DNA of 64,000 nucleotides from Escherichia coli. Its GTDB lineage: Bacteria; Pseudomonadota; Gammaproteobacteria; Enterobacterales; Enterobacteriaceae. The stretch lies in the NCBI RefSeq assembly GCF_030013595.1, contig NZ_CP122768.1. One strand, given 5' to 3'. Each line of letters opens with the position of its first letter. Position 1 is the first letter of the stretch. This document shows positions 5,150 through 60,896 of the stretch, piece after piece. The notes beneath the pieces are model-generated. The model had not been told where the DNA came from. It saw only the letters and a list, made by a program, of their open reading frames with translations, and did not search any database. A program made the translations under genes and the position numbers.

Positions 5150-5151
5150 AT

Positions 5152-6354: not shown

Positions 6355-6399
6355 ACCATAACCCCATGTTTACTGTGCAATTTTTCATTGATTGCAGAA

Positions 6400-8837: not shown

Positions 8838-8876
8838 TGCTAACGTCAGATTGTTGACAAAGTGCGCGTAGTTCAT

Positions 8877-8974
8877 GCCGGATGCGGCGTGAACGCCTTA
8901 TCCGGCCTACAAAAATCTTGCCAATTCAATATATTGCAGGACCACGTAGGCCTGATAAGCGTAGCGCATCAGGC
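8877..8974. repeat. BIME: two inverted REP elements flanking a short spacer
   Basis: gccggatgcggcgtgaacgccttatccggcctac ... gtaggcctgataagcgtagcgcatcaggc; classic REP consensus in opposite orientations between fepA and entD. Confidence 0.7.
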
Positions 8975-9011
8975 AGTTTTGCGTTTGTCATCAGTCTCTA
9001 ATATGGTCGAC

Positions 9012-9632
9012 ATGAAAACTACGCATACCGCCCTCCCCTTTGCCGGAAATACGCTGCATTTTGTTAAGTTCGATCCGGCGAGTTTTCGCGAGCAGGATTT
9101 ACTCTGGCTGCCACACTACGCACAACTGCAACACGCTGGACGTAAACGTAAAACAGAGCATTTAGCTGGACGAATCGCTGCTGTTTATGCCTTGCGGGAA
9201 TATGGCTATAAATATGTGCCCGCTATCGGCGAGCTACGCCAACCTGTGTGGCCTGCGGAGGTATACGGCAGTATTAGCCACTGCGGGACTACGGCATTAG
9301 CCGTGGTATCTCGTCAACCGATTGGCATTGATATCGAAGAGATTTTCTCTGTACAAACCGCAAGAGAATTGACAGACAACATTATTACACCAGCAGAACA
9401 CGAGCGACTCGCAGAATGCGGTTTAACCTTTTCTCTGGCGCTAACACTGGCATTTTCCGCCAAAGAGAGCGCATTTAAGGCAAGCAAGATACAGGCCGCT
9501 CAAGGTTTTCTGGATTATCAGATAATTAGCTGGAATAAACAGCAGATCATCATTCGACTAGAGGATGAGCAGTTTGCTGTGCACTGGCAGATAAAAGAAA
9601 AAATAGTCATAACGCTGTGCCAACACGATTAA
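9012..9632 (+). CDS. entD: 4'-phosphopantetheinyl transferase EntD
   Basis: MKTTHTALPFAGNTLHFVKFDPASF... (ORF 8862..9632; alternative ATG at 9003). PPTase family features; located directly downstream of fepA. Confidence 0.9.
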   Translation: MKTTHTALPFAGNTLHFVKFDPASFREQDLLWLPHYAQLQHAGRKRKTEHLAGRIAAVYALREYGYKYVPAIGELRQPVWPAEVYGSISHCGTTALAVVSRQPIGIDIEEIFSVQTARELTDNIITPAEHERLAECGLTFSLALTLAFSAKESAFKASKIQAAQGFLDYQIISWNKQQIIIRLEDEQFAVHWQIKEKIVITLCQHD

Positions 9633-9742
9633 TTGACAACATCTGGTACGATTCGCCCGCAGCCATTGCTGACCGCGGGCGAAAGTGTAAAACAGGTGCC
9701 TTACCACCCTGACCTGACAACCGGATATGCGGGGATTACTCC

Positions 9743-11080: not shown

Positions 11081-11101
11081 GGATTACTCCCCGCACAACG
11101 G

Positions 11102-11254
11102 CTACTTCTTCGGTTCGTAAGCGAGAACAGCCTTAAACTCAATATTACGTTCCTTCACCGTAAACTCACACAGCGAGTCTCCGACCAGAAGCGTAAATCC
11201 CAGTACCGTCAAACACAGCACTATGACTGCCACAAGGGCATATTTCGTCAGCAT
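11102..11254 (-). CDS. hokE: Hok-family small membrane toxin (type I toxin-antitoxin)
   Basis: 50-aa product [50 protein letters not shown] embedded in a longer leader ORF (mok-like, 11102..11398). IS186 lies 21 bp downstream. Confidence 0.85.
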
Positions 11255-11680
11255 GTTTATATTGCCTCCATGCGAAGAAGGGACTACCATCCAAATTGTC
11301 TGGTTTGGAGTGGCAGCCCCAGGGTTGATAGAAATATCTCCTGGGGCTTCATCTTTCCAGACCTCAGAGTAAACCTGAAACCGGAAAGCTTCAGGCACCC
11401 GCCGTTATCTTACCCTTCCTCAGCAAAATAGCTGTTTATTTATACAGTGAGTCCTGTTTCGGACTTCTCACTCCTCATTTGATCAACTGAAGCTGAACCC
11501 GTTTTTTTCTGCATGCCTCAATCGTCAAAATTCTTCGCCACCAGCCAGCTCTGCCATAACTTGTCACATTGCAGAAGTAGCCAAACTTCTTCAGTCACAA
11601 TCAGTTCACCATCACCAAAAAAAGAAACATTCCAGAACTTCCGCATCTCGCCCAGTCGCTCCCACTTCTATACTGAATAG

Positions 11681-12823
<1,143 letters not shown>

Positions 12824-12888
12824 GTCGGGAATTGCCTTACAGAAGAATATCCCTGACAATGGTGTTTTAACTTACATTTAACAATGTT

Positions 12889-13137
12889 ATGAAACACCCT
12901 TTAGAAACCTTGACCACCGCAGCAGGCATTTTGCTGATGGCTTTCCTCTCTTGCCTGCTGCTTCCCGCCCCCGCATTGGGGCTGACGCTGGCACAAAAAC
13001 TGGTGACCACGTTCCATCTGATGGATCTTAGCCAGCTTTACACTTTATTGTTTTGTCTGTGGTTTTTAGTGCTGGGCGCTATTGAGTATTTTGTTCTGCG
13101 CTTTATCTGGCGACGCTGGTTCTCGCTGGCGGATTAA
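12889..13137 (+). CDS. ybdJ: Small inner-membrane protein YbdJ
   Basis: 82-aa hydrophobic [34 protein letters not shown]... Confidence 0.8.
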
Positions 13138-13201
13138 ACGTCGATTATCGCCGAACTTCGCGGCATACTTTGCTTATTCTCCTTCGCCTAAAGGAACGTT
13201 T

Positions 13202-13585
13202 ATGGATAAGCAATCACTGCACGAAACGGCGAAACGCCTGGCCCTTGAGTTACCCTTTGTCGAGCTTTGCTGGCCTTTTGGCCCGGAGTTCGATGTTTTT
13301 AAAATTGGCGGCAAGATTTTTATGCTGTCGTCGGAGCTGCGCGGCGTCCCCTTTATCAATCTGAAGTCCGATCCACAAAAATCCCTGCTAAATCAGCAAA
13401 TATACCCAAGCATCAAGCCAGGGTATCACATGAATAAAAAGCACTGGATTTCGGTGTATCCCGGCGAGGAAATCTCCGAAGCGTTACTTCGCGATCTGAT
13501 CAACGATTCGTGGAATCTGGTGGTTGATGGTCTGGCTAAACGCGATCAAAAACGACTGCGTCCTTACTCAACCGTAAATCAATAG
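13202..13585 (+). CDS. ybdF: Uncharacterised protein YbdF
   Basis: ORF 13082..13585; start chosen at [32 protein letters not shown]... Confidence 0.8.
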
Positions 13586-13663
13586 CGCATTTTTCTCGCT
13601 TACCATTTCATCTCGATCCTTGTAATCTGCTGGCACGCAAAATTACTTTCACATGGAGTCTTT

Positions 13664-14317
13664 ATGGATATCATTTCTGTCGCCTTAAAGCGTCATTCCA
13701 CTAAGGCATTTGATGCCAGCAAAAAACTAACCCCGGAACAGGCCGAGCAGATCAAAACTCTCCTGCAATACAGCCCATCCAGCACCAACTCCCAGCCGTG
13801 GCATTTTATTGTTGCCAGCACGGAAGAAGGTAAAGCGCGTGTTGCCAAATCCGCTGCCGGTAATTACGTGTTCAACGAGCGTAAAATGCTTGATGCCTCG
13901 CACGTTGTGGTGTTCTGTGCAAAAACCGCGATGGACGATGCCTGGCTGAAGCTGGTTGTTGACCAGGAAGATGCCGATGGCCGCTTTGCCACGCCGGAAG
14001 CGAAAGCCGCGAACGATAAAGGTCGCAAGTTCTTCGCCGATATGCACCGTAAAGATCTGCATGATGATGCAGAGTGGATGGCAAAACAGGTTTATCTCAA
14101 CGTCGGCAACTTCCTGCTCGGCGTGGCGGCGCTGGGTCTGGACGCGGTACCCATCGAAGGTTTTGACGCCGCAATCCTCGATGCAGAATTTGGTCTGAAA
14201 GAGAAAGGCTACACCAGTCTGGTAGTTGTTCCGGTGGGTCATCACAGCGTTGAAGATTTTAACGCTACGCTGCCGAAATCTCGTCTGCCGCAAAACATCA
14301 CCTTAACCGAAGTGTAA
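13664..14317 (+). CDS. nfsB: Oxygen-insensitive NAD(P)H nitroreductase
   Basis: 217-aa [56 protein letters not shown]... Confidence 0.95.
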
Positions 14318-14376
14318 TTCTCTCTTGCCGGGCATCTGCCCGGCTATTTCCCCTCAGATTCTCCTGATTTGCATAA

Positions 14377-15672
<1,296 letters not shown>

Positions 15673-15673
15673 T

Positions 15674-15712
15674 TAAAAAAACCGCTCTTATCGAATGGAT
15701 GAGAGCGGTTTC
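15674..15712. terminator. Bidirectional intrinsic terminator between mscM and pheP
   Basis: A-run, stem accgctct / agagcggt with loop, then T-rich tail; sits between convergent genes. Confidence 0.65.
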
Positions 15713-15752
15713 GGATGGTTGACATCATTTTGTCGGATACGGCGTGAATGCC

Positions 15753-17129
15753 TTATTTCCGACGCAGCGTTTTAAACGCTACAAACAGGAATACAATCCA
15801 CACTGGCAGCAGAATCGCTGACAAGCGCATATCATCCATCGTGCACATCAGCAGCAAAATCATGCCGAGGAAGGCGATGCAGAGATAGTTGCCGAACGGA
15901 TAGAGCAGCGCCTTAAACTGTGTTTCACGCCCCTGACGACGCATCGCTGCACGAAAACGCAGATGCGCCAGGCAGATCATAATCCAGTTCAACAGCAGCG
16001 TTGCTACCACCAGCGCCATCAGCAGACCAAACGCTTTTTGCGGCAGCAGATAGTTGATTAACACCACCAGCGAAGTGATCGCTCCGGAAAGCATCAGCGA
16101 GTTAATCGGCACACCGCGACGGCTGACGCGAGTCAAAAACTTTGGCGCATTACCCTGCACTGAAAGGCCAAACAGCATCCGACTGTTAGAATAAACCCCG
16201 CTGTTATACACCGATAACGATGCCACCAGAATGACGAAGTTCAGCGCAGAAGCTACCACGTTGCTGTCGAGATTATGGAAAATCATCACAAACGGGCTAC
16301 TGTTGGATTTCACTTCCACCCACGGATAGAGTGCCAGTAAAACCACCAGTGAGCCGATATAAAACAGCAGGATGCGATACACCACCTGATTCACTGCTTT
16401 AGGGATGCTTTTTTCCGGATCGCGCGCTTCAGCGGCAGTAATCCCAATCAACTCCAGACCGCCGAAAGAGAACATAATTACCGCCAGCGACAAAATCAGC
16501 CCATTCCAGCCGGTGGCAAAAAAACCACCGTAGCGCCAGAGGTTGTCGATACTGGCTTTCTCGCCGCCGTGACCAGAAAACAGCAGCCACAGACCAAAGC
16601 CGATCATACCGATGATCGCCAGCACTTTAATCAGCGCAAACCAGAACTCGGTTTCGCCATATAAGCGCACGTTCACCAGGTTAACGGCGTTGATGATAAT
16701 AAAGAAGGCGGCAGCCCAAATCCACGTTGGAACATCCGGGAACCAGTACTGCATATAGATGCCCGCAGCGGTCAACTCTGCCATTCCCACCAGCACGAAC
16801 ATCACCCAGTAGTTCCAGCCAGAGAGGAAGCCCGCAAACGGTCCCCAGTATTTATAGGCAAAGTGGGCAAATGAACCGGATACCGGCTCTTCGACCACCA
16901 TCTCGCCGAGCTGGCGCATAATCAGGAAAGCGATGATCCCAGCGACGCCGTAGCCCAGCAATACAGCCGGACCCGCCATCTGAATCGCCGGGCCAATGCC
17001 AAGAAACAGACCAGTACCAATTGCGCCACCCAGCGCAATCAGTTGAATATGACGGTTATGTAATCCGCGATGAAGCGTCGGCTCTTGATTCGACGCAGTA
17101 TCTTCCGATACGGTTGACGCGTTTTTCAC
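15753..17129 (-). CDS. pheP: Phenylalanine-specific permease (APC family)
   Basis: ORF 15753..17165; start assigned to GTG at 17127-17129 (VKNASTVSEDTASNQEPTLHRGLHNRHIQLIALGGAIGTGLF...). Confidence 0.9.
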   Translation of the reverse strand: MKNASTVSEDTASNQEPTLHRGLHNRHIQLIALGGAIGTGLFLGIGPAIQMAGPAVLLGYGVAGIIAFLIMRQLGEMVVEEPVSGSFAHFAYKYWGPFAGFLSGWNYWVMFVLVGMAELTAAGIYMQYWFPDVPTWIWAAAFFIIINAVNLVNVRLYGETEFWFALIKVLAIIGMIGFGLWLLFSGHGGEKASIDNLWRYGGFFATGWNGLILSLAVIMFSFGGLELIGITAAEARDPEKSIPKAVNQVVYRILLFYIGSLVVLLALYPWVEVKSNSSPFVMIFHNLDSNVVASALNFVILVASLSVYNSGVYSNSRMLFGLSVQGNAPKFLTRVSRRGVPINSLMLSGAITSLVVLINYLLPQKAFGLLMALVVATLLLNWIMICLAHLRFRAAMRRQGRETQFKALLYPFGNYLCIAFLGMILLLMCTMDDMRLSAILLPVWIVFLFVAFKTLRRK

Positions 17130-17230
17130 GCCTTTCCCCTGTGTGTCTTTTTTGTTGAGGGGCACCTTTTAACATTTAGTGCCCATCGTCGCAAGACACA
17201 ATCCACACGGTTAAACCGGGTATCCTGCTT

Positions 17231-20200
17231 TTATTTCCGTACCCGATGTCGGTGCAGCCACATCAGCTTATACGCCGCCGGGATAATAAACAGCGACAGC
17301 AAAGGCGCGGTGATCATGCCGCCAATCATCGGCGCGGCAATCCGGCTCATCACCTCTGAACCTGCTCCCGTTCCCCACAGAATCGGCAGCAGACCAGCGA
17401 TAATCACCGCCACCGTCATCGCTTTCGGGCGCACGCGCAGGACCGCGCCGTGATACAACGCCTCATCCAGCTTCTGCTCGCTGAATGTTTGCGGATTATT
17501 CAACGACGGCTCGGCCTCTATGGCGTGACGTAAATACATCAGCATCACCACGCCAAATTCGGCGGCGACCCCGGCAAGGGCAATAAAACCGGTGCCCGTC
17601 GCCACGGAAAGATGAAAGCCCATCCACCACAGCAACCAGATGCCACCCACCAGCGCAAACGGTACGCTGCTGATAATCAGCAACGCTTCGCCCACCCGAC
17701 GGAACGCCAAATACAACAGCACGAAGATGATCATCAACGTCATCGGCACCATGAGTTTCAGCTTATGGTTGGCGCGTTCCAGTAGCTCGAACTGCCCGGA
17801 GAATGCCACGCTGGTGCCCGGTTTTAACTGTACTTTTTCAGCTATCGCTTTTTGCAGATCGTGAACCACCGACACTATGTCACGATCGCGGGCATCGATA
17901 TAAATCCAGCTCGTCGGGCGCGCATTCTCGGTTTTCAGCATCGACGGTCCGGTAGAGACTTTAACGTCAGCCACGTCTGCCAGGGTGATTTGCTGCTTCA
18001 TCGGCGTCAGAATCGGCAACTGGCGCAGCGCCTGCGGACTATCGCGCCAGCTTTGCGGATAACGCAGATTAATTGGATAACGGGCAATCCCTTCCACCGT
18101 TTCGCCAACCATCGCCCCGCCCACCGCAGATGTCACAAACAATTGCACATCCGCCACCGTCATACCGTAACGCGCGGCTTTTTCACGGTTAATCTCAACG
18201 TTGATATAGCGCCCACCTTCCAGACGCTCGGCAAGCGCAGAAGCTACGCCTGGCACCGTTCGCGCCACTTCTTCAATTTGCTCCGCCATCGCGTCGATAT
18301 CCGCCAGCACAGTGCCGGAAACTTTAATGCCGATGGGGCTTTTAATGCCGGTTGAGAGCATATCGATACGGTTACGAATTGGCGGCACCCACAGATTCGC
18401 CAGCCCCGGCAGACGCACGGTGTTATCCAGTTCCTCAATGATTTTGTCCATCGTCATGCCTGGCCGCCACTGATCTTGTGGCTTAAGCTGGATGGTCGTT
18501 TCTACCATCTCCAGCGGAGCAGAATCGGTGGCGGTTTCCGCTTTCCCGGTTTTGCCAAATACCCGCGCCACTTCAGGTACGCTCATAATCAGCTTGTCGG
18601 TTTTTTGCAGCATACTCGCCGCCTCTGCTGCGGAAATCCCCGGCAGCGTCGATGGCATATACAACAAGTCGCCTTCATTGATCTGCGGTAAAAATTCCCC
18701 GCCAACTTTATTGAGCGGCCAGAGAACCGTCAGCACCGAAAGCGCTGCCACCAGCAGCGTGGTTTTTGGCCAGTGCAGTACTTTCAGCAACAGCGGATGA
18801 TAAGCACGAATCAAAAAGCGATTGAGCGGGTTACTGCTTTCTGGCGGAATTTTGCCACGGATCCAGTAACCCATCAGGATAGGGATCACTATGATCGCCA
18901 GCAGCGCCGCACCCGCCATCGCATACGTTTTGGTGAACGCCAGCGGGCCAAACAGACGCCCTTCCTGCCCTTCCAGGGTGAAGATCGGGATAAACGACAA
19001 CGTGATAATCAGCAGACTGATAAACAACGCCGGACCCACTTCAACAGACGCATCGGTGATCACCTGCCAGCGCGTTTTATTATCCAGCGTGGCGTCAGGA
19101 TGCTGGTGCTGCCACTCTTCCAGCCGTTTATGCGCATTCTCGATCATGACGATAGCGGCATCGACCATCGCCCCGACGGCAATCGCAATGCCGCCCAGCG
19201 ACATAATATTGGCGTTCAGTCCCTGAAATTGCATGACAATAAAAGCAATACACAACCCCAGCGGCAACGAAATAATCGCCACCAGCGCCGAGCGCACATG
19301 CCAGAGAAACAGCGCACAGACTACCGCCACCACAATAAACTCTTCCAGCAACTTGCCGCTGAGGTTGTCGATGGCGCGGTCAATGAGCTGGCTGCGATCG
19401 TATGTTGTAACTATCTCCACGCCTTCCGGCAGACTACTTTTCAGCGTTTCCAGTTTGTCTTTCACGGCGGCGATCACTTCTCGGGCGTTTTTGCCGGAGC
19501 GCAGGATCACCACCCCGCCCGCCACTTCGCCTTCGCCGTTCAGTTCGGCAATGCCCCGGCGCATCTCCGGGCCAATCTGGACCTTCGCAACATCGCGCAG
19601 ATAAACGGGCACGCCATTTTCACTGGCTTTTAAAACGATGTGATTAAAGTCGTCGAGCGTTTGCAGATAGCCGCTGGCGCGCACCATATATTCCGCTTCC
19701 GCCAGTTCGATCGACGAACCGCCCGCTTCCTGGTTTGAAGCATCCAGCGCGCTTTTTACTTCGGCGAGACTGATGCCATATTGCGCCAGGCGCTGAGGAT
19801 CGATAACCACCTGATACTCTTTCACCACACCGCCTACCGACGCCACTTCCGCAACGTCAGGAATGGTTTTCAGCTCATATTTGAGAAACCAGTCCTGCAA
19901 TGAGCGTAAATCGGCAAGATCGTGCTTACCGCTGCGATCCACCAGTGCATATTCATAGATCCAGCCAACACCCGTGGCATCTGGCCCCAGCTCGGCGCTG
20001 ACTCCCGCAGGGAGCTTACCCTGTACCTGGTTGAGGTACTCCAGCACCCGCGAACGCGCCCAGTACGGATCGGTGCCATCTTCGAAAATGACATACACAT
20101 AAGAGTCGCCAAACTGCGAGAAACCGCGCACAGTCTTCGCGCCAGGCACCGACAACATGGTGGTGGTTAGCGGATAAGTCACCTGATTTTCAACGATTTG

Positions 20201-20374
20201 CGGTGCCTGACCGGGATAGCTGGTTTTAATAATCACCTGCACATCGGAGAGATCCGGCAGCGCATCCACTGGCGTGTTAATGATGGTCCAGGTGCCCCAG
20301 ATACTCAGAAACAACGCGCCCATCAGTACCAGAAAACGGTTCGCCACCGAGCGACGAATAATCCATTCAATCAT
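17231..20374 (-). CDS. cusA: RND copper/silver efflux pump, inner-membrane transporter CusA
   Basis: 1047-aa [32 protein letters not shown]... Confidence 0.95.
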
Positions 20375-20385
20375 TGGTTATTCCC

Positions 20386-21609
20386 TCAATGCGCATGGGT
20401 AGCACTTTCAGAGCGAATCCGCTCCAGTGCGCCAGAAATATTGGCTTCGGAATCAATCAGGAACAGGCCGCTGGAAACCACCTTTTCACCTTCCGCCAGA
20501 CCAGAGCGTAACGCGGTGACGCCTTGCGATGCCTGGAAAACGGCAACGCGTTTCGGTACAAAGCGCCCGTCGGCATCAACGGTAATCACCCGCTGTTCGC
20601 TGCCGGTATCAATCAGCGCTTGTGACGGAATGAGCAGCATCGGTTCGCTGGCGGTGTTGAGTTGCAACCAGGCGTTCATTCCCGGCTTTAGCGCCTCGTC
20701 GGTGTTGTCGACTTCCAGGCGCAACTGCAGCGTGCGGGTCGCGGCATCCACGCCAGGTAGTAGCGTCCATTTGCGAATGGTGAGTGTTTTATCCGGTCGC
20801 GCCGGAACGGTGAGCGTAAACTGCGAGGCATCTTTCACCAGCCAGGCGATGGACTCCGGGATCGCAGCAGTGACCCACACCGGATCCATACCCTGAATTT
20901 TCGCTACCACGTTATCTTTGGCGATATTCATTCCCGCGCGCAGATCAAACGCGGTGATCACGCCATCAATGGGTGCTTTGAGCGTAAAGCGAGTCTGGAT
21001 TTTTTGCGTGGCAATCAGGCGGCGAATATCCGCCTCCGGCATTCCCGCCAGTCGCAGTCGCTCAAGAATGCCTTCAGTCTGGGTCGCCGTACCGCCGGTT
21101 TCGCGCAGCAGTAAATACTCACTCTGCGCTTCCACCCAGTCAGGAATGGTCAGGTCGAGAAGCGGCGCGCCCTTTTGTACTTTATCGCCCACGGTAAGCG
21201 GATACACCTTGTCGATAAACCCGGCGGCGCGGGCCTGCACAATGGCATACTGATACTCGTTGTAACTGACATTCGCCGGGAAACTCTGGGAAAAAGTCAG
21301 CGGCCCGCGCGTGACGGTAGCCGTTTTCACCCCCAGATTCTGCGTCTGAGTCGGGTCAATGCGCACACCAGACGCAGAACTCTCTTCATCGGCATATTTC
21401 GGCACCAGATCCATATCCATAAACGGCGATTTACCTGGTTTATCGAACCGCGTATTGGGATACATCGGGTCGTACCAGAATAATATTTTACGTTCTGCGG
21501 TCGACGTTTTTTCTGCGGGCGGTTCCGCCTTTGCAAACCAGGTAAAACCTGCCGCAGAAATAATACCGCCCGCGATCATGCTGCCGATAATAAGCGCGAT
21601 TTTTTTCAT
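20386..21609 (-). CDS. cusB: Copper/silver efflux membrane fusion protein CusB
   Basis: 407-aa ORF MKKIALIIGSMIAGGIISAAGFTWFAKAEPP... Confidence 0.95.
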   Translation of the reverse strand: MKKIALIIGSMIAGGIISAAGFTWFAKAEPPAEKTSTAERKILFWYDPMYPNTRFDKPGKSPFMDMDLVPKYADEESSASGVRIDPTQTQNLGVKTATVTRGPLTFSQSFPANVSYNEYQYAIVQARAAGFIDKVYPLTVGDKVQKGAPLLDLTIPDWVEAQSEYLLLRETGGTATQTEGILERLRLAGMPEADIRRLIATQKIQTRFTLKAPIDGVITAFDLRAGMNIAKDNVVAKIQGMDPVWVTAAIPESIAWLVKDASQFTLTVPARPDKTLTIRKWTLLPGVDAATRTLQLRLEVDNTDEALKPGMNAWLQLNTASEPMLLIPSQALIDTGSEQRVITVDADGRFVPKRVAVFQASQGVTALRSGLAEGEKVVSSGLFLIDSEANISGALERIRSESATHAH

Positions 21610-21624
21610 CTCATTAAACCTGGG

Positions 21625-21957
21625 TTACTGGCTGACTTTAATATCCTGTAATAAAGAAAGGTTGCCCTGCTGGACAAAATTAAACGCCACTTTGTCGCCG
21701 GTTTTAATTTCACTCATTTTCGTCTGCGGGGTGATGGTAAAGCGCATGGTCATCTCCGGCCAGTTCACGGCTGCAATCGGATCGTGATGGATGGTGATTT
21801 TTTTGCTTTCCAGATCAACACCTTTTACCACGCCAGTGGCGCTAATAACCTGTTGTTGTGCTTCGCTCATGGTTTCATGATGATGTTCGTTAGCCTGGGC
21901 ATTAAAGCCAATAACGGTAAACAGACTAAACATTGCGACTTGCAGTGCTTTTTTCAT
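21625..21957 (-). CDS. cusF: Periplasmic copper/silver chaperone CusF
   Basis: 110-aa ORF with signal peptide MKKALQVAMFSLFTVIGFNAQANEHHHETMSEAQ... Confidence 0.95.
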   Translation of the reverse strand: MKKALQVAMFSLFTVIGFNAQANEHHHETMSEAQQQVISATGVVKGVDLESKKITIHHDPIAAVNWPEMTMRFTITPQTKMSEIKTGDKVAFNFVQQGNLSLLQDIKVSQ

Positions 21958-21980
21958 TTATTCTCTCCTGGAGTTAAAAA

Positions 21981-23363
21981 TTATTGCTGCCAACCGCCCC
22001 CTAAGGCGGTATATAAAGAAATTTCGTTAACCTGACGGGCATAATTCAGGTCAAGTAAAGTTTGTCGGGTTGCAAATAAAGAACGCTCAGCATCCAGCAC
22101 TTCCAGATAGCTTACTGCGCCGTGCTGATATAATGCCCGCGCCCGTTGCAGGGTAATTTGCAGCGACGCCAGATAACGCTGCTGGGCGCTGATTTGATCG
22201 TTCAGGCTTTGACGTAATGCCAGCGCATCTGCCACTTCTTTAAAGGCGTTCTGGATTTTCTGTTCATAATTCACCACCGACTGCTGCTGGCGAATTTCGG
22301 CGATATCCAGATTGGCCTGGTTACGTTCGGCATTAAAAATGGGGATCTCAATTTTGGGTATAAAATTCCACATCCCGCTGCTGGCGTTAAATAATGACGA
22401 CAGATCGCTGCTGGCGGTTGATATTCCGCTGGTCAGGCTGATAGACGGGAAAAATGCCGCGCGTGCAGCACCAATATTGGCATTAGCCGCCATTAACGCA
22501 TGTTCAGCTTCCATAATATCCGGGCGCTGCAATAAGATTTGCGACGACAAGCCCGCCGGTAATTTAACGCTTTGCAGGCTGTCGCTGTTTACTGTCTGCG
22601 CTTGCGGCAGCTTGCCGTAGCTTCCCAATAACAGTTGCAATGCATTATTCGCCTGCGCCAGTTCCCCCTGACGTTTAGCGATGTCGCTACGGGTACTTTC
22701 AATCACCCCGCGAGCCTGTTCCAGCGCCAGAACATTACTGCTACCTGTCAACAGTTGTTTTTCAACAAACGCATATGACTGCTGATAATTACGCAGCGTT
22801 TCTTCGGCTATTTGTAATTGTGCATAAGCCAGTTGCTGATTGAAATAGCTTTGTGCGACATTAGAAACCAGCAGAATATGCACCGCGCGCTGGGCTTCCT
22901 CAGTGGCTAAATAATTTTGGCGCTCGGCTTCGCTCATGTTCTTTAAGCGACCGAAAAAATCGAGATCAAAGCTGGCGTTAAGGCCAGTCGAGAACTCCCG
23001 CGTCGAGGCTGAATCGCCTTTAAGATTGCCGCTCCAGCTGCCGCTGCCCTCGCCATTGAGCTGTGGGTAGCGGTCGGCATCGGTCAGACGATATTGCGCC
23101 CGCGCTTCCTGCACTTTCAGCGTCGCCATGCGCAAATCCCGGTTATTCACCAGCGCCTCGCTAATCAGCGTCTTCACCTGATTATCAACAAAAAAGGTGC
23201 GCCAGCCCGCGTTCTGGTAGTTATCTGCTGCGTTAACCAGGCCGTTCTGGTTGAGTGAGAACTGCTGCGGCACGGGCATTGCCGGGCGCTGATAATCCGG
23301 TGCCAGTGAACAACCGGTTAGCGCAAGGGCCACACAAAATGGCAGAAGTTTACAAGGAGACAT
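21981..23363 (-). CDS. cusC: Outer-membrane efflux channel CusC (lipoprotein)
   Basis: 460-aa ORF MSPCKLLPFCVALALTGCSLAPDYQRP... (lipobox LTGC). Confidence 0.95.
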   Translation of the reverse strand: MSPCKLLPFCVALALTGCSLAPDYQRPAMPVPQQFSLNQNGLVNAADNYQNAGWRTFFVDNQVKTLISEALVNNRDLRMATLKVQEARAQYRLTDADRYPQLNGEGSGSWSGNLKGDSASTREFSTGLNASFDLDFFGRLKNMSEAERQNYLATEEAQRAVHILLVSNVAQSYFNQQLAYAQLQIAEETLRNYQQSYAFVEKQLLTGSSNVLALEQARGVIESTRSDIAKRQGELAQANNALQLLLGSYGKLPQAQTVNSDSLQSVKLPAGLSSQILLQRPDIMEAEHALMAANANIGAARAAFFPSISLTSGISTASSDLSSLFNASSGMWNFIPKIEIPIFNAERNQANLDIAEIRQQQSVVNYEQKIQNAFKEVADALALRQSLNDQISAQQRYLASLQITLQRARALYQHGAVSYLEVLDAERSLFATRQTLLDLNYARQVNEISLYTALGGGWQQ

Positions 23364-23432
23364 AGGCTCATAATTTCTGGTGATTTTATGCCGCCAACTT
23401 TACTCGCCAGGCTCTGATTTTCCGGTGACAGG

Positions 23433-23454
23433 AAAATGACAAAATTGTCATTTT
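23433..23454. promoter_or_regulatory. CusR box (perfect palindrome) in the cusC / cusR divergent promoter
   Basis: aaaatgacaaaattgtcatttt, a 22-bp sequence whose two halves are exact reverse complements, between divergent cusC and cusR. Confidence 0.75.
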
Positions 23455-23519
23455 GCCAATAAGCGATTGCCATCTGATCCCGCTACTCTAGAATTGCCCG
23501 GGCAACATGCGGAGGAAAT

Positions 23520-37221: not shown

Positions 37222-37806
37222 TTACTCCCTGACAGGGTTCGTAGGCCACTCAATATCAGGTGCAGTTGATGTATCAACACGGTTCAGCAACACCCGATAC
37301 TTTTTCCAGGCTTCCAGCAACGAGGTTTCTCCCTCCGTTGCGATTTCCAGATCTGCAGCATCCTGAAGTGGCGCAATATGCTCACTGGCTACCTGCATCA
37401 GGCTGTTTTTTGTTTCTTCCGCCTCCCGGATCCGGAACAGTTTTTCTGCTTCTGCATCTTTCACCCAGGTTGTGCCGTTCCACTTCTGAAACTCCCCTTC
37501 CGGGGATAACCAGGTGACATTTTCCGGTAATGAGCCGAGTTCAGAAATAAATAACGCGTCGCCGGAAGCCACGTCATAGACGGTTTTACCCCGATGGTCT
37601 TCAACGAGATGCCACGATGCCTCATCACTGTTGAAAACAGCCACAAAGCCAGCCGGAATATCTGGCGGTGCAATATCGGTACTGTTTGCTGGCAGACCTG
37701 TATGAGGCGGAATATATGCGTCACCTTCACCAATAAATTCATTAGTTCCGGCCAGCAGATTATAAATTTTTATGGTCCGTGGTTGTTCACTCATTCTGAA
37801 TGCCAT
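37222..37806 (-). CDS. tfa: Tail fibre assembly protein (lambda Tfa-like)
   Basis: 194-aa [42 protein letters not shown]... with C-terminal conserved block; start overlaps stf stop. Confidence 0.9.
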
Positions 37807-40800
37807 TATGCAAGCCTCACAATATAGTTAAATGCGATGTTTTTGACGGTGTTTTCCGCGTTACCAGCAGCGTTAACGGTGATGGTGTGTCCATGTGAGC
37901 CAATCGCAACCGAGTGCGTATGAGCACCAATACCGACAGTATGTGCGTGTGCACCTGCGCTTGCAGCAGTGCCGGACAGTGAGTGGGTATGTGCGCCAGC
38001 AGATGATGTTGCATAGTTTTGATTATGCACAACAGACAATCTTGTTGATGCACTACCAGCACCGGAGTTAGCACTAGCCGTGTTCACGTTGGCTAGTGAG
38101 TGTGTGTGTGCTCCAGCCGAGTTTGTAGAGCCGCTCACACTGTGTGTATGTGCCCCGGTGTTATTCGTAGATTTAGTGCCGTAATCAAACGACGATGTGG
38201 TTTTCGTACCCAAATCCGTACTTGATGCGCTGGCGCTGTGGGTGTGCGATTTAATGCCGTCCTGTTCCTGAGACAATACGGCACGACCACTGGCGGGCTT
38301 GCCCTTAATCGTCCAGCCACGCATATCAGGGATCACGCCTGACGGATAAGCAACTGCAAGTTTCGGGTATGCAGATTTGTCAAAAGTCTGCCCCTGCATC
38401 AGGGCATAACCAGACGGAACGGTATCTGATGGCCACGGAATTGGTGCGCCAACTGGGTAGCTTTCTGGTGGAAGATTTTTCGAGGTATAAACTTCTGCCC
38501 AGCCTTCCTCAAAACCATAGCCATCTCTTGAGGAACGGTAGAACAGACCTCCATTTCTGTAATGCGCCTTCATCTGCAGGGTCCGGCAACTTCCGACTCC
38601 GGTATAGAAGTTAACCAGAATATAGCTGTCGCCAGAGCGGGTGACATTGTAAGCGCCTGATTCGGCATTCCAGGGAACGCCACCATCCGCATCGGCATAT
38701 GTATCCGTTGCCCTTCTGGCAAAAGCAGCCACATGCGCGGCGGTTAAAGTAATATCTTTTGAACCATCAAACTCAACCCCAGAAACCAGTCTTGGCGTTT
38801 GCAGCTTTGTTGCTGTCAATGCGTTACCGTTCAGACTTGCAGACAGTTTGGTTCCAATAACCAGTTCGCCGGTTGCGTTATCAATAGCAAACGGTCTTAA
38901 TGTATTCCAGCCACCATAAACATCACCTTGATTGGTAAGCAGCAGGTAAGTTTTAGCGCCATCATTACGCCATAATGCCCCATACTCCCCACCTATCATT
39001 CGAATCTGATTACCACCACGCGCTACAATTTCGTCTGTGGCAAAAAGTTTTTTGCACGACAAGTTATCGTTAACGATTAACGAATGGGACTCATAAAAAC
39101 CACGCCCACTCTTAAAATCAAGGATAACGTCCGCCGCGATACATTCAGTCGCTGGAATTGTTGCCCCAAACTTATAGGTCGTATCATTAACAACGAGATC
39201 AGCACCAGGTGCGGATATTGACAGGCCATCTTCGATAAACGCAAAAACAGGGAAAGCAGCGCCATCAACATAGAACACAGAGCGCAAATCATCGCCCTTA
39301 TTACTCATCATTATTGAGTGGATGGCTCGTTCATTGTTTTGATATTGCCAGAACATTCCATAAGCATAACGCCCCCTGTCAGTCCAGCCACCAGGCATAA
39401 CAAATCCGTTAAACTCGCAGTTATTCATCGGATCGCCTGCGGTTCGCGTTGCCGTGGTGATAATGACCCTTGATGCCAGTTCGCTTACTGAGCCAGCAGA
39501 ACGCATAACAACAACAGGGTAATATTTTCCAGATGTTGCACCTGCAGGAGCGTTAACCCGCACATAACGCATACCACGCTTATCAGCAAAGTCTGTTTTA
39601 CTGACCGCGTTAATGTTGTTCAGGAAGCGTCCCTTATCGGGTATATCAGCGCCGTTCTGGTCTTTCTGCAGACGTTTCTCTGCATTGTCATAGGCTGATT
39701 TTACTGACTTTGGCGTTGCCGCCAGCGTTTCAGACGTACTGTTGGTCGCACTGCTGAGCTGTACTATCCCCTTTTTCGTCGTACTTGCATCCTCAAGCGC
39801 CACGGCGGATGCAATATCCTCTGCCCGTTTAGCTGCTGTCTCGGCGCGCGTTGCCGCGGATTCCGCCGTACTTTTGCTCTGTGCTGCCGCTGTCGCACTG
39901 CCAGCAGCCTCTGTCGCCTTCGTGGATGCCGTCGTGGCGCTGCCCTTCGCTGCTGACGCCTGTCTGGTCGCCTCATCTTTTGAAGCAGACGCAGATGATG
40001 CCGATGACGCCGCCGAACTGGCGGACGATGCCGCTGCCGTTTTTGAGGATTCTGCGCTGGTTTCCGACGCTTTCGCGTTCGTTTCGGATGTCTTCGCTGC
40101 GGATGCAGACCTCGCTGCTGCGCTGGCCTGTTCAGCGGCTTCGCCAGCCTTCGTTGTGGCTGTTGAAGCGGACAATGCAGCGCTTTCTGCCGATTTTCCG
40201 GCGGCGGTGGCACTGGCTGAGGCCTGCCCGGCACTTGTTGACGCTGCACTGGCAGACGACGCAGCCGCTGTTTTTGAGCCTGCCGCAGCTGAGGCGCTCT
40301 GTCCCGCTGCCGTTTCAGAAGACCTGGCGTTCGTCTCGGACGTTTTTGCCGCCTTCGCGGAATTTCCTGCCGCCGTTGCCGAGGAAGCTGCACTACTGGC
40401 GCTCGAGGCTGCGCTCGTTTCTGATGATTTTGCAGCCTCTTTTGAGGCCGCCGCATCCCGGGCCGAGGTCGCAGCTTCTGATGCCTTCGTGGTCGCGGTG
40501 GATGCAGATGTGGCTGCTGATTGTTGTGACGCTGAAGCATTCGTTTCTGACGTTTTCGCCGCACCGGCACTGGTGGCCGCCGCGCTTTTTGAGGACTCTG
40601 CAGCGGCAGCACTTTTTGATGCTTCAGTGGCCTTTGTTGATGCCGTTCCTGCGCTGGAAGACGCTGACTGAGCCGACGAAGCGGCCTGTCCGGCTGACGT
40701 GCTGGCTGCGCGTGCTGAGCCTGCAGCATCAGTCGCATGGGTTGCCGCCTCACGGGCAGATGTGCCGGCATCGCCGGCTGACTTCTTCGCGGCTGCCGTG

Positions 40801-41168
40801 TTCTGTGCCACCACGGACGCGTTACGCGCCACCTCTTCCACCATCAGCTCAAAACGGCGCAGTGCCTCCGGACGGGCATCATCCTCCGTCATGGCACCGA
40901 GAAAATCATTCAGCGTACCGGGTCGGGAATCTTCATACACTGTGATAGTCCCGGCATGTGACGGCGGGAATCCTTCCACCAACAGAATAACGCTGTACTG
41001 ACCGTACTCAACGTCCATACTGTAACGCCCGGCTTCATCCGGATTTTCTGAGGCCAGCGTGTTCACCACCACCGTGGTGCTGTTACGTTTTGCTTTCAGC
41101 TGGATTGTGCAGTTCTGTACCGGTTTTCCTGTGCCGTCTTTCAGTACACCTGAAATCTTTACTGCCAT
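37806..41168 (-). CDS. stf: Side tail fibre protein (lambda Stf-like), with long Ala/Ser-rich region and C-terminal HxH repeats
   Basis: ORF 37806..41174; begins (MNM)[31 protein letters not shown]...; about 480 aa of A/S/T-rich low complexity; C-terminus has repeated GAHTHS motifs. Confidence 0.9.
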
Positions 41169-41232
41169 ATTCACCCCACAAAAAAGCCCGCCTGAACCGG
41201 CGGGCTGTCATAACACTGTGTTACCTGGCTAA

Positions 41233-47455: not shown

Positions 47456-47784
47456 CAGTTCACCACCTGTTCAAACTCTGCGCTGAACTCAACACGCAGC
47501 ATACTGACCCGCGACGACCATTTTGCGCAGGTCACCTTTATCTGCCGCCACTCATAAGGCGGCGTCCACAGAAAGGCTTTCCAGCCCCCGTGCTCTTCCA
47601 GAAACGACTCCAGTACCGTGGCCTCCTCACGGGGGACAGAAAGCGTCACGCTGTACGTTTTCAGGTTGGCATTCAGCCCGGCAGGCGCTCGCTGGGAATA
47701 GCCATCACCAAAGCGCACCTTTCTTACAGAAGGGGCCGAAGCCACATCCATACCGGGTTTCACTTTCCAGCGGAAGGTTTTCAT
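47455..47784 (-). CDS. M: Tail tip protein M
   Basis: 109-aa ORF MKTFRWKVKPGMDVASAPSVRKVRFGDGYSQRAPAGLNANLKTYSV... Confidence 0.95.
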   Translation of the reverse strand: MKTFRWKVKPGMDVASAPSVRKVRFGDGYSQRAPAGLNANLKTYSVTLSVPREEATVLESFLEEHGGWKAFLWTPPYEWRQIKVTCAKWSSRVSMLRVEFSAEFEQVVN

Positions 47785-50342
47785 CGTCCACCTCCGGAGA
47801 ACAGTCCACCATCACGCATCTGTGTCTGAATTTCATCACGGGCACCCTTGCGGGCCATGTCATACACCGCCTTCAGAGCAGCCGGACCTATCTGCCCGTT
47901 CGTGCCGTCGTTGTTAATCACCACATGGTTATTCTGCTCAAACGTCCCGGACGCCTGCGACCGGCTGTCAGCCAGACTGCCCGGTGTACCGACATAACCA
48001 CCGGTGGCATAGCCGCGCATCAGCCGGTAGAGATTCCCCACGCCAATCCGGCTGGTTGCCTCCTTTGTGAAGACAAATTCACCACGGTGAACAATCCCCG
48101 CTGGCTCATATTTGCCGCCGGTTCCCGTAAATCCTCCGGTTGCAAAATGGAATTTCGCCGCAGCGGCCTGAATGGCTGTACCGCCTGACGCGGATGCGCC
48201 GCCACCAACAGCCCCGCCAATAGCGCTGCCGATACTCCCGACAATCCCCACCATTGCCTGCTTAAGCAGAATTTCTGTCATCATGGACAGCACGGAACGG
48301 GTGAAGCTGCGCCAGTTCTGCTCACTGCCGGTCAGCATCGCCGCCATATTCTGTGCAATACCATCAAAGGTCTGCGTGGCTGCACTTTTTACCTGCGACA
48401 TACTGTCCGTGGCGCTCTCTTCCCACTCACTCCAGCCGGACTTCAGGCCTGCCATCCAGCTCCCGCGAAGCTGGTCTTCAGCCGCCCAGGTCTTTTTCTG
48501 CTCTGACATGACGTTATTCAGCGCCAGCGGATTATCGCCATACTGTTCCTTCAGGCGCTGTTCCGTGGCTTCCCGTTCTGCCTGCCGGTCAGTCAGCCCC
48601 CGGCTTTTCGCATCAATGGCGGCCCGTTTTGCCCGTTGCTGCTGTGCGAATTTATCCGCCTGCTGCGCCAGCGCGTTCAGGCGCTCCTGATACGTAACCT
48701 TGTCGCCAAGTGCAGCCAGCTGGAGTTTGTACTCCAGCGTCTCATCTTTATGCGCCAGCAGGGATTTCTCCTGTGCAGACAGCTGGCGACGTTGCGCCGC
48801 CTCCTCCAGTACCGCGAACTGACTCTCCGCCTTCCACAAATCCCGGCGCTGCTGGCTGATTTTCTCATTTGCTCCGGCATGCTTCTCCAGCGTCCGGAGT
48901 TCAGCCTGAAGCGTCAGCAGGGCAGCATGAGCACTGTCTTCCTGACGATCGCCCGCAGACACCTTCACGCCGGACTGTTTCGGCTTTTTCAGCGTCGCTT
49001 CATAGTCCTTTTTCGCCGCCGCCATCAGCGTGTTGTAATCTGCCTGCAGAATTTTCCCGTCCTTCAGTGCCTTGTTCAGTTCTTCCTGACGGGCGGTATA
49101 TTTCTCCAGCGGCGTCTGCAGCCGTTCGTAAGCTTTCTGCGCCTCTTCGGTATATTTCAGCCGTGACGCTTCAGTATCGCTCTGCTGCTGCGCATTTTTG
49201 TCCTGTTGACTCTGCTGTTCAGCCTTCTTTCTCGCGGCTTCAAGCGCAAGACGGGCCTTTTCACGATCATCCCAGTAACGCGCCCGCGCTTCATCGTTAA
49301 CAAAATAATCATCCTTGCGCAGACTCCAGATGTCGTCCGCTTTCTTAAACGCAGCCTCTGCCTTAATCAGCATCTCCTGAGCGGTATCAGGACGACCAAT
49401 ATCCAGCACCGCATCCCACATGGATTTGAATGCCCGCGCTGTCCTGTCTGCCCAGGTCTCCAGCGTACCCATGTTCTCTTTCAGGCGGCGGGTCTGGTCA
49501 TCAAACCCTTTCGTCGCGGCCTCGTTCGCCGCCTGCAATGCCCCGGCTTCATCGCCGGAACGCTGCAACTGAGCAACATACGCAATCTGCTCCGCCGTCA
49601 CGTTATGGAACTGGCGTGCCATCGCTGTCAGCCCTGACGTCGGGTCTGTGGTCAGCTTCCCGAAGGCTTCAGCGACCTTGTCCACCTCCACGCCGGATGC
49701 AGAGGAGAAACGCGCCACACTCTGGCTGATGGATGCAATCTGAGCCTCACCGCTTACTCCCGCCTTAACCAGTGCGCTGAGTGACTCGCTGGTCTGGTTA
49801 AACGTCAGCCCTGCCGCCTGCCCGGCTCTGGACAGGACCAGCATACGATCTGCCGTCAGACCCGACTGATTGCCGGAAAGGACCAGCGTTTTGTTGAAAT
49901 CGGACAGGGTTGAGTTGCCCTGATACCAGGCATACGCCAGCGCACCGGTCGCCACCGCCAGCGAGGTGGCCCCGACCATCGGCAGGGTGATCGCACCGGC
50001 AAGCCCCCTGAACATGGGGATCATCCCGCCGAAGGAGTCCTTCACCTGACCACCCTGTTGCAGCAGGATCAGCCACGGACTTTGCCCGCCTGCAAGCTGC
50101 GTGGCCACGTCGGTGAACTGCGCAGGCAGCATACGCATGGCAGCTTTATACTGCCCGACGGAAATCCCCGCTTTCTGTGCAGCCAGCGCCTGTCGGCTCA
50201 GCGACTGTTCAACGACTGCCGCTGTTTTTTTCGCATCACTTTCCGTACCGGAAAAATGACGCCTGACTCTGGCCATCTGCTCGTCAAATCTGGCCGCATC
50301 CAGACTTAAATCAACGACCAGATCGCCTACCGGTTCAGCCAT
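47781..50342 (-). CDS. H: Tail tape measure protein H
   Basis: 853-aa ORF MAEPVGDLVVDLSLDAARFDEQMARVRRHFSG...; long coiled-coil-like central region. Confidence 0.95.
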   Translation of the reverse strand: MAEPVGDLVVDLSLDAARFDEQMARVRRHFSGTESDAKKTAAVVEQSLSRQALAAQKAGISVGQYKAAMRMLPAQFTDVATQLAGGQSPWLILLQQGGQVKDSFGGMIPMFRGLAGAITLPMVGATSLAVATGALAYAWYQGNSTLSDFNKTLVLSGNQSGLTADRMLVLSRAGQAAGLTFNQTSESLSALVKAGVSGEAQIASISQSVARFSSASGVEVDKVAEAFGKLTTDPTSGLTAMARQFHNVTAEQIAYVAQLQRSGDEAGALQAANEAATKGFDDQTRRLKENMGTLETWADRTARAFKSMWDAVLDIGRPDTAQEMLIKAEAAFKKADDIWSLRKDDYFVNDEARARYWDDREKARLALEAARKKAEQQSQQDKNAQQQSDTEASRLKYTEEAQKAYERLQTPLEKYTARQEELNKALKDGKILQADYNTLMAAAKKDYEATLKKPKQSGVKVSAGDRQEDSAHAALLTLQAELRTLEKHAGANEKISQQRRDLWKAESQFAVLEEAAQRRQLSAQEKSLLAHKDETLEYKLQLAALGDKVTYQERLNALAQQADKFAQQQRAKRAAIDAKSRGLTDRQAEREATEQRLKEQYGDNPLALNNVMSEQKKTWAAEDQLRGSWMAGLKSGWSEWEESATDSMSQVKSAATQTFDGIAQNMAAMLTGSEQNWRSFTRSVLSMMTEILLKQAMVGIVGSIGSAIGGAVGGGASASGGTAIQAAAAKFHFATGGFTGTGGKYEPAGIVHRGEFVFTKEATSRIGVGNLYRLMRGYATGGYVGTPGSLADSRSQASGTFEQNNHVVINNDGTNGQIGPAALKAVYDMARKGARDEIQTQMRDGGLFSGGGR

Positions 50343-51173
50343 ACCGGACTCCTCCTGCGATCCCTTCTGATACTGTCATCAGCATTACGTCATCCTCCGT
50401 CATGTCCGCCACATCCGGGGAAACGGGGATAACTTCATTCACGTCCGGGCCAAAGCGGACGCCTCCGGCAAGCCCTGCCGCTTTCTGCATCAGCACATCA
50501 TCTTCAGGCTCTTCGTCAGCCTCACGCCGGTTCAGCAGACTGAAATCCAGCGGATGCATATCCGGATCGCTGAAAAACAGGCTGAGCACGGTGTACGTCA
50601 GCCCGGAAAAGTGCATATCCAGCAGAACATCATGAAAATAATGGGTACTGTAAAAGCGGTGCCAGTCGGCATACTCCGTGGATGACATCCCGGCAAGCAT
50701 GGCACGCCAGTCGGGTCGCCCCATCTCGCGCGCCAGTTTCAGGGCAAAGCTCAGCTCACCGTCGAACACTTTCCCGCAGAAACAGGCTCTGCAGGCCCGG
50801 CGTCCTCTGCCTGTTCAGGGGCATCATTCACCACAAACTCATACATACCGGACAGCCGGTACACCACGTTTTCAGCATGAGAAATTGCCTCTGTGGGCCA
50901 GGTGGTAAGCACTTCCTGCTCAATCTGTTTAACGGCTTCATTCATGGAAGGCTGCTTTGTCTTCTGCGGATGGTTATGCCACAGGGACATAGCCACCACA
51001 AAAGCACCGGTTCTGATGGCGTCTTCCACAGTAAACTTCCGGTTGCTGTCTGACTCCGCCTGTTCTGCCTGCCGTTTCATCAGGGCGAGATGCTCAATAC
51101 GCTGCAGGGCTGACAGTTCAGAAAGCGTGACGGTCACGCCGTTATGTTCAAATGATTCGGTTTTCAGGAACAT
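50335..51173 (-). CDS. T: Tail assembly chaperone G-T fusion, made by programmed -1 ribosomal frameshift at 50769-50775
   Basis: The -1 frame ORF 50335..50769 continues from the G frame at a GGGAAAG slippery heptamer located at the end of G. Confidence 0.85.
50751..51173 (-). CDS. G: Tail assembly chaperone G
   Basis: 140-aa ORF MFLKTESFEHNGVTVTLSELSALQRIEHLALMKRQAEQ... Confidence 0.9.
   Translation of the reverse strand: MFLKTESFEHNGVTVTLSELSALQRIEHLALMKRQAEQAESDSNRKFTVEDAIRTGAFVVAMSLWHNHPQKTKQPSMNEAVKQIEQEVLTTWPTEAISHAENVVYRLSGMYEFVVNDAPEQAEDAGPAEPVSAGKCSTVS
50769..50775 (-). other. Programmed -1 frameshift slippery heptamer G_GGA_AAG
   Basis: Plus-strand ctttccc is the reverse complement of GGGAAAG; GGA and AAG are zero-frame codons of G, and the -1 frame matches the T ORF. 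Confidence 0.85.
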
Positions 51174-51188
51174 CGCTGACTCTCCGGA

Positions 51189-51929
51189 TTAACTGTCGGT
51201 GACAGTGATTTCTGCAACCGCAGCAAGTTCACCATTACCGGATACAACCGGAATGTTGACCTTACCTGCAGCAACGCCTTTCACGGTGATGGTCATACCA
51301 CTGACCGACACGGTGGCTTTTGTTTTATCCGCAGACACCGCACGAAAGCTCTTGTCGGTTACGCCCTCCGGCTGGAAGGCCACGGTCAGCGTGGTGCTCT
51401 GCCCTTTCACCACCGAGGTGCTGGCAGGCGTCACGGTCATGCCGGTTGCCGCTGTTACCGTGCTGCGATCTTCTGCCATCGACGGACGTCCCACATTGGT
51501 GACTTTCACCGTGCGGGTGATCACTTCCTTCGCCGTCACCGCCTTACCGATACTGCTGACCCAGCCACGGAACACATCGACCGTGCCGTTCGGGAAGCGG
51601 ATTTTATAGGCACGGGTATCGCCTTCATTAAACCACGCCAGCAGCGCCTGCTGCCCCTGCTCTCCGGGCATCCACGCCAGCGTGAAGCTGGTATCTCCGG
51701 CAGATTTCTGCCCCTGCCCGGTCGCAGTCCAGTCTGCATCTTCATCATCGAGATAGCTGTCGTCATAGGACTCAGCGGTCAGTTCGCCGGGCGTCAGGTC
51801 TTTAACTTTTGCCAGACGCGACCAGTCAACGTCTGAAAGCGGATTCGCATAAGGGTCACCGCTCCCCTTATAAACCCACAGGGTGGTCCCGGCACCTTTC
51901 ACCGGCATTACAGGATTTGGTACAGGCAT
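51189..51929 (-). CDS. V: Major tail protein V
   Basis: ORF 51189..51959; start taken at [33 protein letters not shown]... (246 aa); C-terminal Ig-like region. Confidence 0.9.
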
Positions 51930-56463: not shown

Positions 56464-60144
<3,681 letters not shown>

Positions 60145-60170
<26 letters not shown>

Positions 60171-60855: not shown

Positions 60856-60896
60856 CGAAAACCCGCGAGGTCGCCGCCCCGTAACCTGTCGGATCG
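60856..60896 (-). other. cos site (cosN with adjacent cosB side toward Nu1)
   Basis: Plus strand gcgaaaacccgcgaggtcgccgccccgtaacctgtcggatc is the reverse complement of the lambda cohesive-end region; aggtcgccgccc (60868-60879) corresponds to the 12-nt cohesive end GGGCGGCGACCT. Confidence 0.85.

Follow-up and report, generated by a model that had tools for sequence, protein, structure and literature searches.

A predicted lambda-type G/GT programmed −1 frameshift cassette in an Escherichia coli prophage at the DLP12 position

The closest described system to the locus discussed here is the G/GT gene pair of bacteriophage lambda. In lambda, approximately 96% of the ribosomes stay in frame and produce the protein gpG, while ~3–4% slip on the heptamer G_GGA_AAG and produce the longer protein gpGT (PMC3296357, PMC7618472, PMC5009743). 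The frequency of slipping depends on the mnm5s2U34 modification of tRNA-Lys(UUU) (PMC3296357), and a G:GT ratio of ~30:1 is required for tail assembly (PMC5009743, PMC7618472, PMC3296357). The G part of both gpG and gpGT coats the tape measure protein gpH, and in the rare gpGT the T part brings in the tube protein gpV (PMC5009743), so the fixed slip frequency sets the G:GT ratio for tail assembly. Neither of the two proteins, both of which the assembly of lambda tails requires, is found in the virion (PMC5009743). The heptamer is given as G_GGA_AAG or GGGAAAG in section 2.1.2 of PMC7618472 and in Table 1 of PMC3296357; the body text of the latter (Maynard 2012) prints ‘GGGTTTG’ instead, which was taken as a misprint. 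Here, a stretch of 64,000 nucleotides (nt) from an Escherichia coli chromosome (NZ_CP122768.1, assembly GCF_030013595.1; referred to as the window) was analysed, in which a pair of overlapping genes on the minus strand of a lambda-like prophage, between 51173 and 50335, has the features of this cassette. Studies of the lambda G/G-T −1 frameshift were reportedly made by Levin, Hendrix and Casjens (1993) and by Xu, Hendrix and Duda (2004, 2013, 2014), all of which PMC5009743 cites.

Gene G, which encodes the tail assembly chaperone in the zero frame (140 amino acids, aa), occupies 50751..51173 on the minus strand, from an ATG at 51173 to a TGA at 50753..50751, as judged from its open reading frame (ORF) and its family matches. 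A Shine-Dalgarno (SD) sequence, GGAG, was read on the same strand at 51182..51185, approximately 8 nt from the ATG, and the best anti-SD duplex for G has an energy of −6.6 kcal/mol at a spacing of 7. The slippery heptamer lies near the end of the gene, where the minus strand from 50775 to 50769 reads GGGAAAG. Its offset from the ATG of G is 398 (398 mod 3 = 2), and the zero-frame reading across the site is GCG GGA AAG TGT TCG ACG GTG AGC TGA. Codon 134 is GGA and codon 135 is AAG, in the X XXY YYZ arrangement. Five zero-frame codons stand between the heptamer and the stop codon of G, and no other in-frame XXXYYYZ heptamer occurs in the G ORF. The −1 frame that is entered at 50769 (GTG TTC GAC and so on) is open for 144 codons, down to a TGA at 50337..50335; upstream of the heptamer the same frame is open for 15 codons only, back to a TGA at 50817..50815. 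This T reading frame (50335..50769, minus strand), also recognized by its family matches, would be reached by the shift only. The predicted coding sequence (CDS) of the gpGT fusion spans 50335..51173 on the minus strand as join(51173..50769, 50769..50335), with base 50769 read twice, and its translation gives a protein of 279 aa in which PVSAGK is followed directly by VFDGELSF at the junction. The original prediction for this DNA had placed GGGAAAG at 50769-50775 on the minus strand, with GGA and AAG in the zero frame of G, and had the −1 frame continue as the T ORF at 50335..50769. When the frames were recomputed, the heptamer proved exact to the base and in the zero frame, and the −1 frame had no stop codon right after the site, being open for all 144 codons.

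Both reading frames belong to the expected protein families. G matches PF06894 Phage_TAC_2 (4.9e-59) and the equivalog TIGR01674 phage_lambda_G (215 bits against a cutoff of 74), and it is 100% identical to the RefSeq protein WP_000479169.1, named ‘phage tail assembly chaperone G’. T matches PF06223 Phage_tail_T and the equivalog TIGR01715 phage_lam_T (187 bits against a cutoff of 77). A profile of the fused protein is also available (phrog_32165, 290 positions); G covers positions 1–142 of it and T covers 140–285, and the two ORFs join on the profile at the place that the −1 fusion predicts. No solved structure of G-T was found by sequence. The V-G-T-H synteny is complete, with all genes on the minus strand and two overlapping ORFs between the tail tube and tape measure genes. 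Gene V, which encodes the major tail tube protein (246 aa; PF16461 Phage_TTP_12 and Big_2), lies directly upstream of G at 51189..51929, the coordinates having been obtained via a RefSeq relative. Gene H, which encodes the tape measure protein (853 aa; PF06791 and PF09718), is found at 47781..50342. T and H share 8 nt, as the ATG of H (50342..50340) falls within the end of T. The SD sequence of H, AGGAGGA (50356..50350), also sits within T, with a duplex energy of −10.3 kcal/mol at a spacing of 7.

The comparison with lambda revealed a very close relationship. The G-T interval of 839 bp has 97.7% nucleotide identity to lambda 9711..10549, and it is 98% identical to that of phage 434 and 99.9% identical to that of phage ev207. 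A three-way alignment showed that the heptamer and ~25 nt on each side of it are the lambda sequence. When each gene is compared in its own frame, G differs from lambda G at 15 codons (10 synonymous and five non-synonymous) and T from lambda T at six (four synonymous and two non-synonymous), and the proteins are 95–98% identical. Of 5,426 complete E. coli genomes, 3,539 (about two-thirds) carry related G-T DNA. Four E. coli genomes are 100% identical, and RefSeq names the two proteins there ‘phage tail assembly chaperone G’ and ‘phage tail assembly protein T’.

The published lambda signal G_GGA_AAG and the ~30:1 G:GT ratio match the arrangement seen here (PMC5009743, PMC7618472, PMC3296357). 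Because the signal is identical base for base and the proteins are nearly so, the mechanism here is, by a wide margin, most likely that of lambda. The frames, the family matches, the fusion profile and the published signal all agree with the original reading of the locus as the lambda G/T pair with its −1 shift. The locus is almost certainly the lambda G/GT programmed −1 ribosomal frameshift cassette, carried by a lambda-like prophage at the DLP12 position of the E. coli chromosome. Ribosomes would initiate at the ATG of G at 51173, and most of them would stay in frame across G GGA AAG and terminate after five more codons, which would yield the 140-aa gpG. A small fraction would slip by −1, with tRNA-Gly moving from GGA to GGG and tRNA-Lys from AAG to AAA, and would go on from 50769 in the T frame to 50335, which would yield the 279-aa gpGT. 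Slipping at the lambda rate, as well as lambda-like roles for the two proteins, would be expected here by homology. Nothing in the sequence contradicts this explanation, and what weighs against it are limits only. Prophage late genes are not expressed before induction; the window does not include the early and regulatory region of this prophage; and with an amber codon in its terminase gene A (see below), selection may have ceased to act on the cassette in this lineage. The feature is already known: it is the textbook lambda G/GT frameshift, very widespread and entirely ordinary.

The position of the shift site is kept in reference phages down to ~72% nucleotide identity, with five zero-frame codons before the stop codon of G, while the sequence of the site varies. 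The spacing to the G stop was measured independently in 10 reference phages. G GGA AAG is found in lambda, 434, PhiR12_4 and an Stx2a phage, while Stx1_1380 and CP-1639 have A AAA AAG, a shift site that is discussed in PMC5009743. A non-canonical heptamer, G GAA AAG, occurs ~24 nt before the G stop in each of HK225, phi80, mEp043 and LLS, and it is annotated as the frameshift site in LLS. It is not a strict X XXY YYZ, as re-pairing of the P-site codon GAA on GGA would involve a mismatch at the first position. In each reference phage, the −1 frame leads into the conserved T N-terminus xELxFxLxLAREfGRPDWRAMLAGM. A scan of IMG/VR with a T-domain alignment gave 80 further loci. A shift-prone heptamer ending in A AAG was found at the same place in all 89 resolved loci (GGGAAAG in 82, GGAAAAG in four and AAAAAAG in three), although the spacing to the stop is in this count partly given by construction, as the anchoring motif included the G stop. 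Two IMG/VR sequences carry lesions in T. In IMGVR_UViG_2874956758_000002 (L068), T codons ~22–36 are lost through an in-frame deletion between two CCGACTGGC repeats. In IMGVR_UViG_2537562188_000009 (L087), T codon 17-18 contains one inserted nucleotide (GGGG to GGGGG), which would disrupt the T frame. Both may be decayed copies or assembly errors.

The heptamer GGGAAAG occurs seven times on the two strands of the window, against 7.43 ± 2.54 expected from dinucleotide-preserving shuffles. Since this is the chance frequency, the motif alone is not evidence. The crude geometry of a shift cassette was defined as an in-frame heptamer at most 30 codons from the stop together with at least 100 codons of −1 extension, and it was found eight times among 388 mechanical ORFs. 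Apart from G/T, all of these cases consist of a long ORF in the −1 frame that is overlapped by a short spurious ORF in the zero frame. Frame arithmetic on the seven identified five real genes (the terminase gene A, the capsid gene E, stf, ompT and an insertion sequence (IS) transposase) and two non-coding ORFs (a second frame inside stf, and one antisense to fepA). As seven of the eight matches are spurious, the geometry alone is not diagnostic either. What goes beyond chance is the context, namely the family matches in both frames, the V-G-T-H synteny, the near-identity to the lambda site, which has been characterised by experiment, and the conserved position of the heptamer.

The prophage that carries the cassette is lambda-like, lies on the minus strand and extends from ~36.1 kb to beyond the end of the window. 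RefSeq relatives name quuD, essD, rrrD, rzpD, bor and nohD at this DLP12 position. All 14 of the genes Z, U, V, G, T, H, M, L, K, I, J, lom, stf and tfa are open and 92–100% identical to those of an intact relative, G and T being 100% identical. A gene-by-gene comparison with the intact relative showed that the head genes are also open, with the exception of gene A. The cohesive-end sequence GGGCGGCGACCT is present at 60879..60868, and the 23.7-kb module from cos to tfa has ~97% identity over 97–98% of its length to isolated phages such as Kati, ev099, PhiR34_1 and mEp332. In gene A, which encodes the large subunit of the terminase (60170..58245, minus strand), codon 443 (58844..58842) has changed from GAG to TAG, giving RVD, a stop and then AINKTY. 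A comparison with 3,102 matching E. coli records did not find the exact 61-mer with the amber allele in any of them, so the change is either a private (recent) mutation or a base-calling error. If the amber codon is real, tails and proheads could be made, but the DNA would not be packaged unaided. The original prediction had taken the intact shift signal as support for a functional tail module. One part of this stands: the tail genes are open, the module is ~97% identical to viable phages, and the tail module looks competent at the sequence level. However, an intact signal is necessary but far from sufficient for a working tail module, and a functional phage is not implied. The intact signal and the open tail genes point to potentially competent tails, whereas the amber codon in terminase gene A means that the prophage as a whole is probably packaging-defective.

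An alternative to the frameshift is that T is a stand-alone gene, translated from the GTG at 50769, which would make the shift unnecessary. The ORF finder lists this GTG as a start, and RefSeq and the lambda reference NC_001416 both carry a stand-alone T CDS. However, none of the four candidate starts of T, internal ATGs included, has an SD sequence at a workable spacing. The best duplex for T is formed by the heptamer itself (−4.3 kcal/mol at 1 nt) and the others are no better than −2.2 kcal/mol, while G, H and M have clear SD sequences of −6.6 to −10.8 kcal/mol at 4–7 nt. At the position of the ‘GTG start’, the relatives have GCA or GCC, neither of which can initiate, and T is conserved regardless. 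Furthermore, the fused-protein PHROG profile is matched contiguously by G and then T, and gpG and gpGT are the products reported in the literature (PMC5009743, PMC3296357). T would seem to be a downstream ORF without initiation signals of its own, and the ‘GTG start’ consists of the final heptamer base and the two bases that follow it, and is no initiation codon. Since T has no SD sequence and the relatives have non-start codons at this position, the stand-alone T CDS is an annotation convention and not evidence of independent translation, which is very unlikely. It is even harder to believe that the G-T fusion arises from slippage of the RNA polymerase rather than of the ribosome. Nothing specific speaks for this, as it is a generic option at homopolymer runs. 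Transcriptional slippage needs much longer homopolymers, and the runs at the site are just GGG and AAA. The modification state of tRNA-Lys alters the GT:G ratio of lambda, which points to the ribosome (PMC3296357).

Two further proposals leave the ribosomal frameshift in place and concern its enhancement and its present use. A candidate RNA structure, which is not established, was obtained at 50691..50761 (minus strand) as an RNAalifold consensus of 11 sequences. Helix 1, in which 50761..50754 pairs with 50698..50691, begins 7 nt downstream of the heptamer and contains helix 2, a GC-rich hairpin (50735..50720 paired with 50715..50700). Such a stem could boost the shift and make it stimulator-dependent. 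The 7-nt spacer of the consensus structure is canonical; when only the 90 nt that follow the site are folded, the pair probability of helix 1 is >0.97 for the window as well as for Stx1 and PhiR12_4; the fold is also highly probable in the lambda sequence; and one pair in helix 1 shows a compensatory change from G-C to A-U. However, the probability of helix 1 is just 0.24 in phi80, and the compensatory change in this helix represents one event in four related sequences. Among 37 unique sequences, 12 of the 21 pairs are invariant and only two are compensatory, probably through single events. The stability was unremarkable when compared with dinucleotide shuffles (z = −1.4), and similarly so when synonymous codons were resampled with the protein fixed (z = −1.15, with 13.7% of the resamples as stable). 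Synonymous diversity is no lower near the site (~0.12 in T codons 5–28 versus ~0.15 in codons 29–82), and the natural variant L068 deletes both 3′ arms. A review states that a stimulator seems not to be involved in the lambda shift (PMC5009743). In the tests run, neither the stability nor the conservation of the structure was found to exceed what the coding sequence gives by itself. Stimulator-dependent −1 programmed ribosomal frameshifting, with a heptamer, a spacer of 5–9 nt and a stem or pseudoknot downstream, calls for such an excess. A boost of the shift by this stem is unlikely, and slightly more doubtful still is the wider claim that a conserved bipartite stem tunes lambda-like G/T frameshifting, contrary to the prevailing view that there is no stimulator. 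The stem was rejected as an established feature, because the fold is plausible but indistinguishable from what a GC-rich, highly conserved coding sequence gives anyway. The other proposal is that the G/GT signal is an intact but idle relic, kept because the inactivation of the prophage is recent. The GAG to TAG change at codon 443 of gene A is in line with this, its allele being absent elsewhere and hence recent or private, as is the 100% identity of G and T to the intact relative, which would have left too little time for decay to show. Nevertheless, the remaining head and tail genes are open and cos is intact, so that tails could still form on induction and a helper terminase could package the genome, and the amber codon could be a sequencing error or be suppressed. 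An idle relic is conceivable, if rather doubtful; as a statement about present use and not about identity, it is compatible with the cassette being the lambda G/GT frameshift.

The lambda-type frameshift at this locus matters little beyond annotation; it is a classic case of a protein ratio being set by programmed frameshifting. RefSeq (NZ_CP048821) and the lambda reference (NC_001416) give T as a stand-alone CDS from the GTG at the end of the heptamer, with no G-T join. The frameshift product is annotated in some records only, namely those of 434 and LLS, both of which give the same join. The stand-alone T CDS is an artefact of annotation, passed on to thousands of genomes, and the real product would be join(51173..50769, 50769..50335). 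The correct annotation of the gpGT join is a by-product of the analysis, as are the private nonsense codons in gene A and, in the same window, in nfrB.

The remainder of the window is E. coli chromosome, with ent-fes-fepA-entD, cusCFBA/RS, nfrBA, ybcH, envY and ompT. The gene nfrB (25836..28022, plus strand), which encodes a glycosyltransferase activated by cyclic di-GMP and required for the adsorption of phage N4, has TGA instead of TTA at codon 234 (26535..26537). It is intact in the 99.9%-identical strain HCP5S3_I2, and its stop codon is the second private nonsense codon in the same 64 kb. Compared with the nearest relative, NZ_CM149870, the region ~5000..33000 of the window has seven single-nucleotide polymorphisms (SNPs) over ~27 kb, outside a recombinant patch near ompT. 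Six of the seven are in an annotated CDS (one in fepA, one in pheP, two in cusA and two in nfrB); all six are protein-changing and one of them is nonsense, and the SNPs are not outgroup-polarised. Relaxed selection, mutagenesis or sequence errors would each be in keeping with this pattern. Between entD and hokE, the window has 1,336 bp (9744..11079) more than HCP5S3_I2, flanked by a 12-bp target duplication. The ORF within this insert (9792..11072) is an IS4-family transposase (NF033592), and the element looks IS186-like. At the end of the prophage, stf (37806..41174, minus strand) is uninterrupted, with 1,122 codons according to the ORF finder and 1,120 aa in the RefSeq relative, and is followed by tfa (37222..37806). 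A second-frame ORF of 335 codons is open inside stf (39764..40771). In strain QEC11-421 (NZ_CP048821 1451480..1488500), the same prophage end, comprising ompT, an alpha/beta hydrolase, a partial tfa and a methyltransferase, is joined to intS/tRNA-Arg/yfdC and fad-yfc, whereas in the window it adjoins envY-ybcH-nfrAB-cus. This implies that QEC11-421 underwent a large chromosomal rearrangement, probably between prophages.

When the cassette is set beside the known systems, it shares with lambda the V-G-T-H order, the ORFs of 140 and 144 codons, the 279-aa fusion, the heptamer G GGA AAG at codons 134–135, the five codons up to the G stop and the 8-nt overlap of T with H. It differs from lambda in five residues of G (L59V, Q73K, M74Q, N117D and T122A) and in two of T (G110V and A116V). 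Furthermore, it resides in a prophage at the DLP12 position with an amber codon in gene A, whereas lambda is found at att-lambda and has no such codon. Other lambdoid phages (434, ev207, the Stx1 and Stx2 phages, HK225, phi80, mEp043 and LLS) have the site position, the T N-terminus and the synteny in common with the window, although some of the lambdoid relatives use an A AAA AAG or G GAA AAG site and have shorter T domains of 113–117 codons. The dnaX gene of E. coli, which produces tau and gamma by means of A AAA AAG, resembles G/GT in its tandem −1 slip, in which tRNA-Lys moves from AAG to AAA, and in that one mRNA gives a fixed ratio of two proteins with a common N-terminus. Unlike G/GT, dnaX is strongly stimulated by an SD-like element upstream and a stem-loop downstream, its efficiency is ~50%, and its shifted frame stops almost at once. 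In G/GT, by contrast, the efficiency is low, there is no established stimulator, and the shifted frame adds a domain of 144 residues.

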